Positions 13,076-22,772 of a stretch of DNA of 32,000 nucleotides are shown here, in pieces. This DNA is from Thermodesulfobacteriota bacterium (GTDB lineage: Bacteria > Desulfobacterota > WTBG01 > JAGOGO01). How positions within the stretch are numbered: the stretch's first letter is position 1; each line of letters starts with the position of its first letter. Made by a program: the position numbers and the translations under genes. The stretch is taken from positions 2,445,622 to 2,477,621 of the forward strand of contig CP113000.1 in NCBI GenBank assembly GCA_026625185.1, given 5' to 3'. The notes under the pieces were generated by a model. That model was given only the letters and a program-made list of their open reading frames with translations. It did not search any database and was not told the origin of the DNA.

Positions 13076-13148
13076 GCCGAGGTAGCTCAGTCGGTAGAGC
13101 AACGGACTGAAAATCCGTGTGTCGACAGTTCGATTCTGTCCCTCGGCA
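13076..13148 (+). tRNA. tRNA-Phe (GAA)
   Basis: GCCGAGGTAGCTCAGTCGGTAGAGCAACGGACTGAAAATCCGTGTGTCGACAGTTCGATTCTGTCCCTCGGCA gives a clean 73-nt cloverleaf with anticodon loop CTGAAAA. Confidence 0.95.
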
Positions 13149-13475
13149 TCAGTATTTTTAATGACTTAGCTTAATTGTGTTAGGTCCTTTTTTGTTACCC
13201 GACCATTTTGTCCCCACTTTTTAAGTTAAGTATTGTGAAAAGAGGGTAGGGTAAAACTTATACCTCTTCCTAAACAAAGCATTCACTCCTTACCGGCACT
13301 ACTTCAAGGGACTGGGTTTCCAAAAGGGTGTAGACCCCCCCCTAAGACCCCAGTCACCCCTTCGTTTGAGTGTAGACTGGACCAATTTTACACAGGGGGG
13401 AAATTTATGAGGGCTAGCCATTTTTTGTTATTAGGTAAGCATGGGCGCCGAAATAAAGCGCTTAACCTATTCCCT

Positions 13476-14012
13476 TCACTCATCCGGAGAGTACGATAAT
13501 ATTTCATCCCTGAATCGTGCCGGGGCTGTGTAAGGGTGAAGCTCGCTCTTTGTCCTATCAAGGATATGCCGCACACAAACTCCTGCCGCCTTCAGGTAAT
13601 CGGCAATTAACGACCGATGACACCTCCACCAGACTGCTTCCGCGCACATGACGACCGTTCGTTTCCGAGAGGCCAGATCCAACAGTCGTTTGACTCCTGC
13701 ACGAAACTCTTTTGTCTCCATGTAGTCCGCATAGCCGCGAAATGATTCGTTGCGCCAGAGGGTGTTTTGCGAGTCCGGACGCGGCTGCCTTCGCCCGCCG
13801 AGTTCGGGCAGCAGAACATACTCTATTCCAACTCCTGTGAGTGAAATGCGAAGTGCGCCTTGATTGAAGTGTGGGTATTTACGGGAAGCCGGGACACGTC
13901 TCACATCAGCCAGAGATTCGATCTTATTATTGGTGAGCAACTCGAAAAATTCGCAAAGGGTTCGAGTTGAATGCCCCACCGTCCAAATAGTCAACTCCTC
14001 TTCATTCATCAT
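13476..14012 (-). CDS. DUF488 domain protein (copy 1)
   Basis: The 178-aa ORF with TIWTVGHSTRTLCEFFELL...IESLADVRRVPASRKYPHFNQ...VVMCAEAVWWRCHRSLIADYL is the DUF488 signature as I recall it. It is more GC-rich than the host backbone. Confidence 0.85.
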   Translation of the reverse strand: MMNEEELTIWTVGHSTRTLCEFFELLTNNKIESLADVRRVPASRKYPHFNQGALRISLTGVGIEYVLLPELGGRRQPRPDSQNTLWRNESFRGYADYMETKEFRAGVKRLLDLASRKRTVVMCAEAVWWRCHRSLIADYLKAAGVCVRHILDRTKSELHPYTAPARFRDEILSYSPDE

Positions 14013-14101
14013 ATAAAATCGCTGAGTGTCCGTCTAAAAATGTTTGTATGGTTTTCCTAGGATACATAGGTAAATGATTATATTTGGCATAAGACCCCTT
14101 T

Positions 14102-14136
14102 TTAAGGATTTTATAATTTTACGGACGGCCTCTTTC
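14102..14136 (-). promoter_or_regulatory. 35-nt motif upstream of the DUF488 gene, shared with the 96-aa gene upstream region
   Basis: TTAAGGATTTTATAATTTTACGGACGGCCTCTTTC matches 14679-14713 (TTAAGAATTTTATAATTTTATGGACGTCCCCTTTC) at 31 of 35 positions. The minus strand carries a TATAAAAT -10-like box. The motif is duplicated at 18355-18389 in copy 2. Confidence 0.45.
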
Positions 14137-14328
14137 CTTCTTCCAAGGAGCCGCCCCCCCTTCGGTCAACGGCGAGGGTCAGGTTCAGCGAGCTTGTGAG
14201 AGCCGTAACCTGGACTTTCTGGTTGGATATCTGTCTATCCTGTTTTCATCTTTTGTGAAGCATCCCGTCCAGAACCAATTCTAATCATAGAAATGCATCT
14301 ACCGGACTCCTCTGAATGTGCGCTCTTG

Positions 14329-14619
14329 TCATTGCTGAGCAACAGTGCCCGCCAAGCGGGCGGAAATCTCCGACAACTTCCGTATAATAATCCAGTTCTG
14401 CTTCACCACGGCAGCGAGATATCCGACTGTTGCCTGGTCTGCAGCATTGGCGAACGAAAACGCCATTCCCGCTTTCATCAGGCTGAGGCCAGTGAGATCA
14501 GTGGCGATTTCCTCGATCATCGCCACGTCTGCTGCGTCAATCTCCGTTAGGTGATACTTCTGTATGAATTCGTTCTTCTTGCGCTCGATTTTTTTCTCCT
14601 TGCTCTCAAACAGTCCCAT
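14329..14619 (-). CDS. 96-aa hypothetical protein (copy 1)
   Basis: A good RBS (GGAAGAAAGGAGGATCAC) lies upstream of the ATG. The product is MGLFESKEKKIERKKNEFIQKYHLTEIDAADVAMIEEIATDLTGLSLMKAGMAFSFANAADQATVGYLAAVVKQNWIIIRKL. I recall a QNWIIIR-type motif from uncharacterised small proteins but cannot name a family. Confidence 0.6.
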   Translation of the reverse strand: MGLFESKEKKIERKKNEFIQKYHLTEIDAADVAMIEEIATDLTGLSLMKAGMAFSFANAADQATVGYLAAVVKQNWIIIRKLSEISARLAGTVAQQ

Positions 14620-14678
14620 GTGATCCTCCTTTCTTCCTGCCTAACAATGCTTATATTGATCCGTATAAGATCACATTG

Positions 14679-14713
14679 TTAAGAATTTTATAATTTTATG
14701 GACGTCCCCTTTC
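14679..14713 (-). promoter_or_regulatory. 35-nt motif upstream of the 96-aa gene (paralogous to 14102-14136)
   Basis: See 14102-14136. It lies 60-95 nt upstream of the ATG at 14619 and is duplicated at 18932-18966. Confidence 0.45.
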
Positions 14714-14819
14714 TTCTCCCGTCCCCTTTCTTCTCCTTTTCATATTATTTCCTCCTTCTCTCATTAAACTATTCTCTAAGCTTTCCTGCCACTTCCCATT
14801 ATTTCTCTAAACAGCCAAT

Positions 14820-14855
14820 AAAAAAGCCGAACTTTCCCTTTACGGATAATTCGGC
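14820..14855 (-). terminator. candidate Rho-independent terminator (minus strand)
   Basis: The minus strand reads GCCGAATT-loop-AGTTCGGC followed by TTTTTTAT. The loop is long, so this is only a moderate call. Confidence 0.4.
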
Positions 14856-14934
14856 CTATGCCATCGCTTATATAGCATTTTTTCCTTCCTCTATTGGTAA
14901 CCTTCTTGTTTAATGAAGGTTATTTTATTCAACG

Positions 14935-14953
14935 CTTTAATCCTCGGAAAGTC
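14935..14953. repeat. 19-bp perfect inverted repeat, left arm
   Basis: CTTTAATCCTCGGAAAGTC is the exact reverse complement of 16844-16862. Confidence 0.9.
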
Positions 14954-21055: not shown

Positions 21056-21438
21056 TCAGCTATGTCGATTCAAGGCTGAGAACCCTGTTGTTTGACCAGC
21101 ATTTATATGTTTAGAGAAGGTAATCGGCGCTATTGATCTTATATTTATTGGTGCCAATGGCGGCGAGAATGGGGGCATATACCTACTCCTTTCATCTTCT
21201 CTTGCTCCGCATCCGACCCTACGCTTGCTACAGCTAGTATTCCGCAAACACGTGTATAACTGTCGAAAGTACTCCTTCCCTGAAATAATTTCTGGGAAGC
21301 TTGGCAGATTTCGCTATGCGATTTCAAGTCGAGGACAGGCATAAATTGCATCTTTTGTTTGGTATATTATAATGTTATAAGATTTTATCTCCGGTTATTC
21401 CGGACAGTAGTGAGCTTAAATATAAGATTATTAATCAA

Positions 21439-21476
21439 AGCCTAACCGCGTTTGAAATACTGGTTAGCCTTTTTTA
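21439..21476 (+). terminator. Rho-independent terminator
   Basis: The hairpin is GCCTAACC-loop-GGTTAGCC (one mismatch) followed by TTTTTT. Confidence 0.55.
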
Positions 21477-21554
21477 AATTATTTTTAGTAAATTATTTGT
21501 AGAAGAAAAAAACACGGAAAGCCCTGCATGCTGTTCATCGTTTTACCCTATTCA

Positions 21555-21647
21555 TTTTTCCCTTATTAACCAATAAGGCTGGACGGTGTCCCTCTCGGGT
21601 CCAGATTTTTATTTTACTGCTAATTTCAAAAATGAATTGTTTTTAAA
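21555..21647 (+). repeat. R element copy R3 (diverged)
   Basis: The core CGGTGTCCCTCTCGGG is closed by the perfect stem CTGGA/TCCAG. The copy ends in AAAAATGAATTGTTTTTAAAGG, as in R1/R2. Confidence 0.6.
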
Positions 21648-21700
21648 GGAGTTTTATTTTCAACAAAAAAAACCCTAAATTTTTTTCTCCTACCATAGAC

Positions 21701-21895
21701 TTATTTCTTATTACCGAGTAATTTAAAACTATGATCCGCCAAGCTAGTAACATTATCAACTAAAAAGATAATCCCTCGGGGGTCATTCTCGACAACTAAT
21801 TCTGAAATAGCTTGTATAAATCCTTCCAATAATGTCCCAAATCTTTTACGGTATTTTATGCCGTGCTCGTTTTTTTGCTCTTTTGTCATTCCCAT
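21701..21895 (-). CDS. 64-aa hypothetical protein
   Basis: The internal ATG has a GAAAGGG RBS-like sequence upstream. The product is MGMTKEQKNEHGIKYRKRFGTLLEGFIQAISELVVENDPRGIIFLVDNV... I recognise no family. Confidence 0.4.
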   Translation of the reverse strand: MGMTKEQKNEHGIKYRKRFGTLLEGFIQAISELVVENDPRGIIFLVDNVTSLADHSFKLLGNKK

Positions 21896-22281
21896 TGTTT
21901 TACCCTTTCTTTCATAAAGTTGTTTTTGATTGCTCCAATTTCCAATTAAATTCTTGGCCCGCATGGAAATCTTCTGCAGGTTATTTGGACTTAAAAAACC
22001 TTCTCGACAAAAAAATTTCCGGCCATAAATCGAGGAAAAGAGGGTTTAAGGATATTTTAACAATAAACCTTTACCCTTTAAAAAAAATAAGGTGAATTAT
22101 GTATTTTTAGAAAAAAAATATGGAATTTTAGAGATATGGATAAAGAAAGGATAAAATTTCTAAATCATCCTTGCATGGCTTTTAATTTCTAAGAAAATTT
22201 ATAAATTGAATAGTCGTAGGATAGTGTGTCTTTGAAAAGAATACAGACTAACTCCCTCAATGATAGTTAGTTTTGATTCCA

Positions 22282-22366
22282 TTTATATCCTAATCGCCGT
22301 TCTAACGTCCCTCGCGGGGCGGGAAAATCCCCTGAAGGTTTTTCGGAAAAACATGCTTTTTTAAAA
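22282..22366 (+). repeat. R element copy R4 (diverged)
   Basis: It aligns gap-free with R2 at 56 of 85 positions (my count). The core is ACGTCCCTCGCGGG and the copy ends in TTTTTTAAAA. Confidence 0.65.
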
Positions 22367-22491
22367 TAGTTTTAATTCCAGCAATAAAAAAAGACCTCGA
22401 ATTGAGACCCTTTTTTATTTTTTTAAATTGTAGAGTTTTTGTTTAGTATACAGAACAAACCAGGCCAAAACAGACGCAAAATATCTAAGAT

Positions 22492-22576
22492 GAATTCTTA
22501 CTCCCGAAATGCAGGGGAAGAAACCCTATTGTGTTGTCAACGGTCGGTAGGCTCTCCCTACCAAACCCCCGGGAAG
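22492..22576 (+). repeat. X block copy X2
   Basis: GAATTCTTACTCCCGAAATGCAGGGGAAGAAACC...CGGTAGGCTCTCCCTACC contains the perfect GGTAGG/CCTACC hairpin. Confidence 0.75.
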
Positions 22577-22731
22577 AGTAAAATTTATCCGTTTATGTCT
22601 TTAAAATGTCTCCATAATCAAACAAAAGACCAAATACCACTAAACACCAGGATAAAGGTATCAACACATAATTATTAAATTTTGTTGTTTTGTCTTTTCC
22701 TTGTTTTAGGTTAATTTTGCCTTGGTTCACT

Positions 22732-22772
22732 CTGAAAATCCGTGTGTCGACAGTTCGATTCTGTCCCTCGCA
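22732..22772 (+). repeat. att-like direct repeat: third, slightly degenerate copy of the tRNA-Phe 3' part
   Basis: CTGAAAATCCGTGTGTCGACAGTTCGATTCTGTCCCTCGCA equals 13107-13148 with one G deleted in the acceptor 3' strand. The next 64 nt or so are about 75% identical to the sequence following copies 1 and 2. Confidence 0.9.

Follow-up and report, generated by a model that had tools for sequence, protein, structure and literature searches.

How does a tRNA gene come to be followed by two tandem islands that are delimited by copies of the tRNA 3' part, while neither of them encodes a recombinase? The question is raised by a stretch of 32,000 nucleotides from a Thermodesulfobacteriota bacterium (GenBank assembly GCA_026625185.1, contig CP113000.1, positions 2,445,622 to 2,477,621), referred to as the window in the following. 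Two islands, E1 (13107-17359) and E2 (17360-22731), follow one another here, the first of them starting within a tRNA-Phe(GAA) gene. The explanation that we favour, with a probability of roughly 0.65, is that a classical lambda-type tyrosine integrase built up a tRNA-anchored island region by tandem accretion, the single islands being non-autonomous and resembling cis-mobilizable elements (CIMEs).

The intact tRNA-Phe(GAA) gene at 13076-13148 (plus strand), recognised in the original prediction from the bare sequence, is also reported by ARAGORN and by the Rfam tRNA model (75.4 bits). A repeat finder applied to the 32-kb window agrees as well with the three same-orientation copies of the tRNA 3' part and the single-G deletion in the third. 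A core of 39 nt (CTGAAAATCCGTGTGTCGACAGTTCGATTCTGTCCCTCG) recurs exactly and in direct orientation at 13107, 17360 and 22732; it runs from CTGAAAATCC to CCCTCG, and its first base is the first base of the anticodon loop (13107). Copy 1 (13107-13148, plus strand) comprises the last 42 nt of the tRNA-Phe gene and represents attL of E1. Copy 2 (17360-17401, plus strand) is identical to these 42 nt and represents both attR of E1 and attL of E2. Copy 3 (22732-22772, plus strand) is exact over 39 nt and then lacks one G in the 3' strand of the acceptor stem, so that CCCTCGGCA is reduced to CCCTCGCA. Exact repeats of 39-42 nt are unattainable by chance in 32 kb. The arrangement of an intact tDNA at one end and same-orientation tDNA 3' fragments (17360, 22732), with an identity block from the anticodon loop, a recognised sublocation, to the tRNA 3' end, corresponds to the islands collected in Islander; tDNA sublocation classes, anticodon-centred attP sites and tandem arrays are known from there (PMC4383910).

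Sequence similarity continues beyond the cores. Over the 77 nt 3' of the core, copies 1 and 2 are 100 % identical and copy 3 is 74 % identical to them. The predicted relatedness of the third flank was thus correct, but the identity between the first two, originally put at about 64 nt, actually extends over 1613 bp. A reading of the 77-nt flank as conserved chromosome, for example as tRNA terminator, was rejected: the related loci L019, L022 and L028 (public contigs are numbered with L) match the window for only 10-21 nt past the tRNA, and the flank after copy 3 is therefore taken as element-derived.

No recombinase is recognisable in the islands or elsewhere in the 32-kb window. Scans with Pfam, PHROGs, NCBIfam and PADLOC covered all sizeable open reading frames (ORFs) between 11 and 32 kb of the window, and none of the four detected a recombinase; PF00589 hits in the islands were lacking from Pfam, PHROGs and NCBIfam. 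In addition, a hidden Markov model (HMM) of an integrase family (120 integrases, the family of the L035 integrase described below) was run against the six-frame ORFs of at least 25 amino acids of the 32-kb window and gave a best E-value of 3. Relaxase, type IV secretion system (T4SS) or replication remnants did not appear in the Pfam and PHROG scans of the islands, and no excisionase or transfer function is encoded by any of them. Searches of PDB sequences with the 143-aa, the DUF488 and the 307-aa proteins returned nothing recombinase-like. The initial statement that the islands are without integrase, excisionase, transposase and relaxase is in line with these profile scans, and an integrase overlooked at that time did not come to light. 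Since no integrase, excisionase or transfer function is encoded, the islands are regarded as non-autonomous, CIME-like units.

To place the locus among its relatives, GTDB genomes and JGI metagenomes, which do not include the species of the window, were searched for the 39-nt core. This gave 29 hits from relatives of the window organism, whose oppBC side is about 88-93 % identical at the nucleotide level. An intact tRNA-Phe gene at the equivalent place is present in 14 of the 29; oppB is located directly upstream in 12 of them, and the remaining two match the upstream sequence of the window. The DNA 3' of the intact tRNA-Phe gene is different at each of the 14 loci. The comparison of related sites advised in the original prediction hence finds one and the same locus (oppBC, tRNA-Phe) continued by variable islands. 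The other 15 hits are partial cores, and in every one of them the tRNA identity is lost before the first anticodon-loop base or no more than 2 nt from it. In nine of these 15 the core is directly abutted by a right-end module of ~245 nt (class 1), with a different cargo on each contig. Read towards the core, this module comprises a 107-nt motif termed R107, the arm-type repeats GCTACCAT-TTT-GCTACCAT, four ACAAG repeats placed within a 22-bp inverted repeat, and finally ...GTTATCCCTT...GCAAGCAC abutting the core. E1 of the window keeps the proximal 122 nt of the module (17234-17355), which are ~92 % identical (L040). The six other partial copies show a second class of right end with direct repeats of its own. 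The flanks past the cores fall into several classes built on one plan, a hairpin and a T-run followed by paired direct repeats of 7-9 nt. These conserved arms on both sides of the core support the earlier proposal that the repeats are attachment (att) scars of tyrosine-integrase elements with crossover in the anticodon loop.

The same organisation is found at the island ends of the window. The P' arm of E1 (13149-13222, plus strand) starts with a weak terminator-like hairpin and a T-run, read from the sequence by inspection without folding, and continues with the arm-type-like motif CCGACCATTTTGTCCCCAC at 13199-13217, 50 nt past the tRNA end; the arm is 74 % identical to the flank of core copy 3. 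This flank (22773-22872, plus strand) is likewise of the P' type, with an arm-like motif GGGTCCATTTTGTCTCAAC at 22823-22841 and an R107-like 18-mer at 22855-22872. The P arm, or right end, of E1 (16966-17359, plus strand) contains R107 copy b, a block in common with E2 (17139-17206), the arm-type direct repeat GCTACCATTTTGCTACCAT (17235-17253, 125 nt 5' of the core) and an imperfect 22-bp inverted repeat (17274-17295 and 17321-17343) ending ~17 nt from the core. The P arm of E2 (22260-22731, plus strand) is composed of a diverged R107 (22260-22366), a class-2 block (22386-22475) and the block in common with E1 (22491-22558), and its proximal part is ~68 % identical to that of E1. Taken across the core, the two right ends are homologous between 17139-17475 and 22491-22846 (68 % identity over 360 nt). 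The four att arms are the only places in the window with the motif CCATTTTGYYNCCA; four or more matches occurred in 0 of 100 shuffles. Finally, a truncated class-1 right end is located at 29429-29498 (plus strand), in which only the proximal ~58-70 nt are preserved, followed by CTGA and unrelated DNA. It is 81-83 % identical to the right end of E1 and to the class-1 modules.

R107 consists of a core CGGAGTCCYTCTCGGGTC, a variable hairpin and AAAAGAATTCTTTTT. Within the window it is found solely inside the islands and only on the plus strand, at 14948-15054 (copy a), 16966-17072 (copy b), 21543-21601, 22260-22366 and 22855-22872. In the related contigs the class-1 right-end module has R107 as its distal part. 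Copy a lies within E1, is 94 % identical to copy b and is possibly a relic of an older right end; generally, the internal copies may be traces of earlier cassette boundaries that have decayed.

Could the arms act as RNA genes or as attC-like recombination sites? In RNAalifold the class-1 P arm forms one mostly invariant 22-bp inverted repeat with nearly no covariation, and this repeat is limited to class-1 arms. Single-stranded DNA folds of eight right ends were no better than those of shuffled sequences (z -1.8 to +1.5), and Rfam at a permissive threshold reported only two tRNAs and the RNase P RNA, with nothing in the att arms. Because of the near-absent covariation and the folding at shuffle level both readings were dropped. 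Integron cassettes were rejected too, as the window has no integrase and the eight right ends no attC-like single-stranded fold; the L035 integrase described below likewise gives no hint of an IntI type, although no search aimed at IntI-specific features was made. By eye, an inverted repeat is also seen at the matching place of the E2 arm (~22630-22715) with different bases, GGGA/TCCC instead of CTAA/TTAG. An inverted repeat kept with changed bases would suggest a putative site for a dimeric protein.

Which recombinase belongs to such arms? The exact 19-nt motif of the E1 P arm, GCTACCATTTTGCTACCAT, is present in 12 virus-like contigs of IMG/VR, and at least 7 of the 12 carry a tyrosine integrase; the 39-nt core and the P' pattern of the window had no match in IMG/VR. 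One of the contigs, L067, is a complete 10-kb element in a tRNA-Val(CAC) gene, delimited by a direct repeat of 45 nt from the first anticodon-loop base to CCA. Its arm motif is found 50 nt past the tRNA end and 135 nt before the distal core, compared with 50 nt (the diverged CCGACCATTTTGTCCCCAC) and 125 nt in the window. A 119-aa ORF and the gene of a 386-aa integrase adjoin the tRNA. Arm-type sites on both arms are the layout of a lambda-type attP, which argues against the need for an unusual recombinase. Furthermore, among the relatives themselves L035 encodes a PF00589 integrase of 348 aa directly 3' of the equivalent tRNA-Phe gene. It has ordinary phage-integrase Pfam domain hits, and its closest homologue (77 % identity) is part of an HTH_17-int arrangement beside a tRNA-Arg gene. 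A recombinase next to a core copy, which the original prediction had suggested to look for in the whole genome or metagenome bin, is present in one relative. In the ~80 kb of island-side DNA examined it is the only tyrosine integrase of the 29 related loci, and phmmer together with the integrase-family HMM, applied to the window and to L001-L058, detected an integrase in L035 only.

Several further observations were made at the related loci. In a related metagenome-assembled genome, L022 (1-6650) carries a Prim-Pol element (9e-30) and several small ORFs 3' of tRNA-Phe, and no integrase was found in the 6.6 kb of sequence examined; this element could be a satellite-like autonomous relative. Another related genome (L020/L028, CAVTQE010000040.1) has a second core copy on its tRNA-Phe contig. 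The ~5 kb on the island side of this copy encode, judged by eye, small secreted Gly/Tyr-rich, OmpA-like and BON-like proteins, again with no integrase in these ~5 kb. An ORF of the window at 23082-23432 (116 aa, rich in Gly, Tyr, Asp and Arg) resembles these proteins in composition. In L038 (1575-1787) a partial core and its P' flank are followed within ~250 nt, near the contig end, by a second class-1 right end, which is joined to TTGGTAAG instead of a core. Possible readings are a mini-element without cargo or a junction at a secondary site, comparable to 29429-29498 of the window. A dispersed, lineage-specific repeat of ~60 nt, located at 603-669 of the window, recurs within the islands on many contigs of the relatives (L028, L031, L032, L041, L050, L057, L058, L062, L063), the copies being 82-90 % identical. 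Lastly, two 23-nt sequences at 16799-16821 in E1 and at 24043-24065 after copy 3 are 91 % complementary (CCTCGCAGAAATGCGGCGGTTTT); the sequence is also present in L062 and looks like a common terminator-type hairpin motif.

The most conspicuous feature of the array is the left part of both islands. The segments 13107-14719 and 17360-18972 (both plus strand) are identical in all 1613 bp according to self-BLAST and are called module A. Copy 1 includes the core, the P' arm, a DUF488 gene (13476-14012, minus strand; Pfam DUF488 5e-34, PADLOC PDC-M45B 9e-34), a gene of 96 aa (14329-14619, minus strand; phrog_16443, 2.5e-23) and two promoter-like motifs. In copy 2 the DUF488 gene is found at 17729-18265 and the 96-aa gene at 18582-18872, both on the minus strand. 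The promoter-like motif of ~70 nt (TTTTTAAGGATTTTATAATTTTACGGACG...) lies 5' of both genes of the module (14073-14144 and 14646-14720, with copies at 18326-18397 and 18899-18972), and the 1613-bp repeat stops exactly where one of these motifs stops. Copies of the motif also flank DUF488 homologues and other genes in the related contigs L036 and L062. Beyond module A the remaining 2.6 kb of E1 and 3.8 kb of E2 are unrelated except for the att-proximal arms. A simple segmental tandem duplication was rejected on these grounds, as the units agree only over 1613 bp and not throughout. The perfect left module is also at odds with the original view of E1 and E2 as two independent elements. It rather indicates siblings from one population, and homologous recombination may have made or reshaped the tandem. 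Moreover, RecA-dependent deletion or amplification of a 4253-bp unit is made possible by the module.

A perfect repeat of this length gives reason to ask whether the tandem structure is real at all, or whether there is one island with alternative right halves in different strains and the 1.6-kb repeat was mis-resolved. By exact-protein look-ups the organism of the window was found in about ten public assemblies, and most of its short-read contigs do end at the repeat. In L001, a JGI scaffold of 1.5 Mb, a gap of 10 N lies exactly at 17360, and two contigs follow alternative paths: L004 passes from the tRNA through module A into unique E2 sequence with E1 absent, and L002 from the right end of E1 through module A into unique E1 sequence, as a circle or a tandem would. 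On the other hand, L011 spans oppBC, tRNA-Phe, module A, unique E1 and then the second core, and L003 spans the right end of E1, module A and then unique E2. Both tandem junctions are thus backed by independent assemblies (L003, L005, L011). The DUF488 protein is also listed twice on a single 3.3-Mb NCBI contig (WAC09134.1, WAC09135.1), which suggests an assembly of long-read quality. An assembly artefact, named originally as one of the outcomes that would overturn the tandem accretion, is very improbable in the light of L011, L003 and the paired accessions. The differing left neighbour in L001 was rejected as a rearrangement, the join being the gap itself. At its other edge this gap has a repeat of ~87 nt, which is present in the window at 5216-5302 between serS and the RNase P RNA gene and has an 84 % identical copy at L001:10917-11003; it is another dispersed repeat that breaks assemblies. 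L002 and L004 are treated as leads and not as evidence of excision, since low-coverage short-read graph paths through an exact repeat of 1.6 kb are unreliable.

If the tandem is real, its last step may still have been made by RecA-type recombination through module A instead of a second site-specific integration. A sibling circle could have been inserted in the manner of Campbell, or two island alleles could have undergone unequal exchange, the middle core being carried along in either case. This route would explain why 1613 bp are identical at 100 % compared with 61-94 % for all other common island DNA, and why the identity breaks off just where a dispersed promoter-like motif ends, a motif found beside DUF488 homologues in other places too. 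All four combinations of entry into and exit from module A are seen in public contigs. However, the left edge of the identity is the first anticodon-loop base, which is (within 2 nt) also the edge in 15 of 15 unrelated junctions of the family, and E1 has a complete class-1 P arm of its own abutting the core, as expected of a circle that carries an attP. We consider this route rather unlikely. It concerns only the last step and not the nature of the islands, since the product of a Campbell-type insertion is indistinguishable from that of the integrase. Quite another proposal, raised at the outset, is that the islands are moved by a non-classical recombinase of their own, for instance the DUF488 protein or a small ORF. 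In its favour, module A with the DUF488 and 96-aa genes is the sole part present in both islands and adjoins the att site. However, the AlphaFold model of the DUF488 protein (predicted local distance difference test score 84) matches PTP/DUF442 phosphatase folds weakly and recombinase folds not at all, a check that had been recommended beforehand, and the protein is a candidate defence gene product by its match to PDC-M45B. Its close homologues are located in unrelated neighbourhoods away from tRNA-Phe, the other islands at the related tRNA-Phe loci lack DUF488, and the att architecture is the classical lambda-type one of elements with ordinary tyrosine integrases. A self-encoded recombinase is, if anything, even less credible than a faulty assembly. 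A last reading sees the tRNA-Phe locus as an integron-like capture platform, with integrase-less cassettes of 0.3-6 kb, each bearing a full lambda-type attP, as the main mobile unit, which a rare trans-acting integrase would insert, excise and shuffle. It would explain the excess of cassettes over integrase-bearing elements, ~25:1 as counted in public contigs, and the better conservation of ends than of cargo; we regard it as rather doubtful.

Tandem accretion by a lambda-type tyrosine integrase, which we prefer, would proceed as follows. Strand exchange by the integrase would take place within the tRNA-Phe anticodon loop or immediately behind it. The attP of the incoming circle would consist of a P arm of ~125-245 nt, the 42-nt tRNA 3' part and a P' arm of ~75 nt, the P arm offering arm-type direct repeats (GCTACCAT-TTT-GCTACCAT) and further repeats, and the P' arm a hairpin with T-run and an arm-type-like motif 50 nt past the tRNA end. 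Each integration would rebuild the tRNA-Phe gene and displace the older islands distally. The anatomy of the array, the lack of a recombinase, the conservation of the ends across the family and the association of the arm motif with integrases are shown by the data; the identity of the integrase, the order of arrival and any present-day mobility are inferred. E1 would be the newest arrival and E2 an older one, and 22773-29498 would probably be a still older, decayed island. In the last step a sibling circle could have come in through the integrase, or a homologous insertion of the Campbell type could have taken place, with the same product either way. With two perfect cores and a canonical P arm, E1 could still be structurally excisable by a cognate integrase acting in trans. 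E2 is probably locked and not mobilisable, because its excision via copy 3 would yield a tRNA-Phe one acceptor-stem base short. A third, decayed island 3' of copy 3 is suggested by the flank of P' type found there, by the R107-like string at 22855 and by the truncated right end. The array probably reaches 29429-29498, possibly its decayed distal boundary. The third island is uncertain, as the stretch holds ordinary-looking amino-sugar genes (for a NagB-like protein, GlmM and a protein resembling the C-terminal part of GlmU).

A number of points weigh against this explanation. A cognate integrase was not found within the 32-kb window, and one integrase in ~80 kb of 29 loci means that a helper may be uncommon or lacking altogether. 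Genes for conjugation or packaging are not seen, so that no way for the islands to pass from cell to cell is apparent. In the window, the P' arms match the canonical arm motif at only 11-13 of 19 positions and may be non-functional, and core copy 3 is damaged. Module A is 100 % identical against 68-74 % for the other att-proximal DNA, as homologous recombination would likewise be expected to produce, and L002 and L004 are equally explicable as assembly-graph paths through the 1.6-kb repeat. The tandem accretion of non-autonomous, CIME-like elements put forward in the original prediction fits the conserved ends among the relatives and the lack of a recombinase in the islands.

The cargo of the two islands is different. 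E1 contains an ORF of 93 aa (15059-15340, minus strand), a Fur/PerR-like regulator (15483-15911, plus strand; Pfam FUR 8.6e-26, NCBIfam PerR 1e-31) and a degenerate GGDEF-like ORF of 143 aa (16252-16683, plus strand; diguanylate cyclase, PDB 3ign, E = 0.0066). E2 carries an NCS2 permease of the xanthine/uracil type (19298-21055, plus strand; Pfam Xan_ur_permease 1e-58, TIGR03173 5e-80), whose gene has a G+C content of 0.53-0.56, and an ORF of 87 aa (21701-21964, minus strand). The G+C content of the islands spans 0.32-0.56, which was counted as a sign of foreign DNA. Elsewhere in the window, the RNase P RNA gene (bacterial class A, 5382-5774, minus strand, 320 bits) overlaps a spurious plus-strand ORF of 145 aa.

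The window shows at nucleotide resolution how a flexible region anchored at a tRNA gene is assembled in a lineage of uncultured anaerobes. Arrays of this kind can hold defence-candidate, regulator and transporter genes, and they would be missed by tools that expect one integrase per island, such as Islander, because the PF00589 integrase inside the island is lacking here. Should the islands still be mobile in trans, they would offer a cheap way of shuttling cargo, comparable to CIMEs or to the island DNA associated with tycheposons; if they are no longer moved, they would be a well-preserved record of past accretion. The conserved arm motif GCTACCAT can serve as a search handle for related att sites in metagenomes.

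Among the known systems CIMEs are closest. Their definition and their accretion have been reviewed (PMC5704250) and they are listed in ICEberg 2.0 (PMC6323972); accretion means site-specific integration beside a resident element, as in ICESt1/CIME of Streptococcus thermophilus (PMC5704250). As in CIMEs, genes for integration and transfer are lacking from the islands of the window and the units are arranged in tandem at the 3' end of the target gene. E1 retains attL and attR, its 42-nt cores being identical and accompanied by a canonical P arm and by a P' arm; E2 does so only in part, as its distal core lacks one G. In contrast to CIMEs, the islands show no trace of an ancestry in integrative and conjugative or mobilizable elements, with no relaxase, coupling-protein or T4SS remnants found in the scans, and a derivation from such elements by loss of modules is uncertain for them. 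They are only 4-5 kb long, and their host is an uncultured Thermodesulfobacteriota bacterium. The relatives at the same tRNA-Phe site include both a Prim-Pol element (L022) and an integrase element (L035).

Tandem ssrA-specific genomic islands are known from Dehalococcoides (PMC3146451). They are similar in that serial islands at one small-RNA gene are separated by direct repeats of its 3' end. They differ in the target, which is the tmRNA gene, and each of them is reported to possess its own recombinase. The islands of Prochlorococcus associated with tycheposons (bioRxiv 10.1101/2020.12.28.424599) are tRNA-adjacent cargo islands as well, in which new arrivals push older ones inward and scattered partial tRNAs are left as remnants; most of them are without an active element, and the cargo serves nutrient uptake or defence. 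However, tycheposons are defined by a tyrosine recombinase of their own and a replication module, both absent from the islands of the window. The lambda-type attP of L067 agrees in its identity block, which opens with the first anticodon-loop base and closes with the tRNA 3' end, and in the 19-nt repeat 50 nt past the tRNA end and 125-135 nt before the distal core. L067 differs by its own 119-aa ORF, its 386-aa integrase and ~8 kb of further ORFs, and the P' arm motif of the window is diverged from the one in L067. The phenomenon as such is of a known kind, namely CIME-like islands and tRNA-anchored accretion, and the novelty lies in the lineage, in conserved arms that are well defined, and in how strongly integrase-less units predominate.

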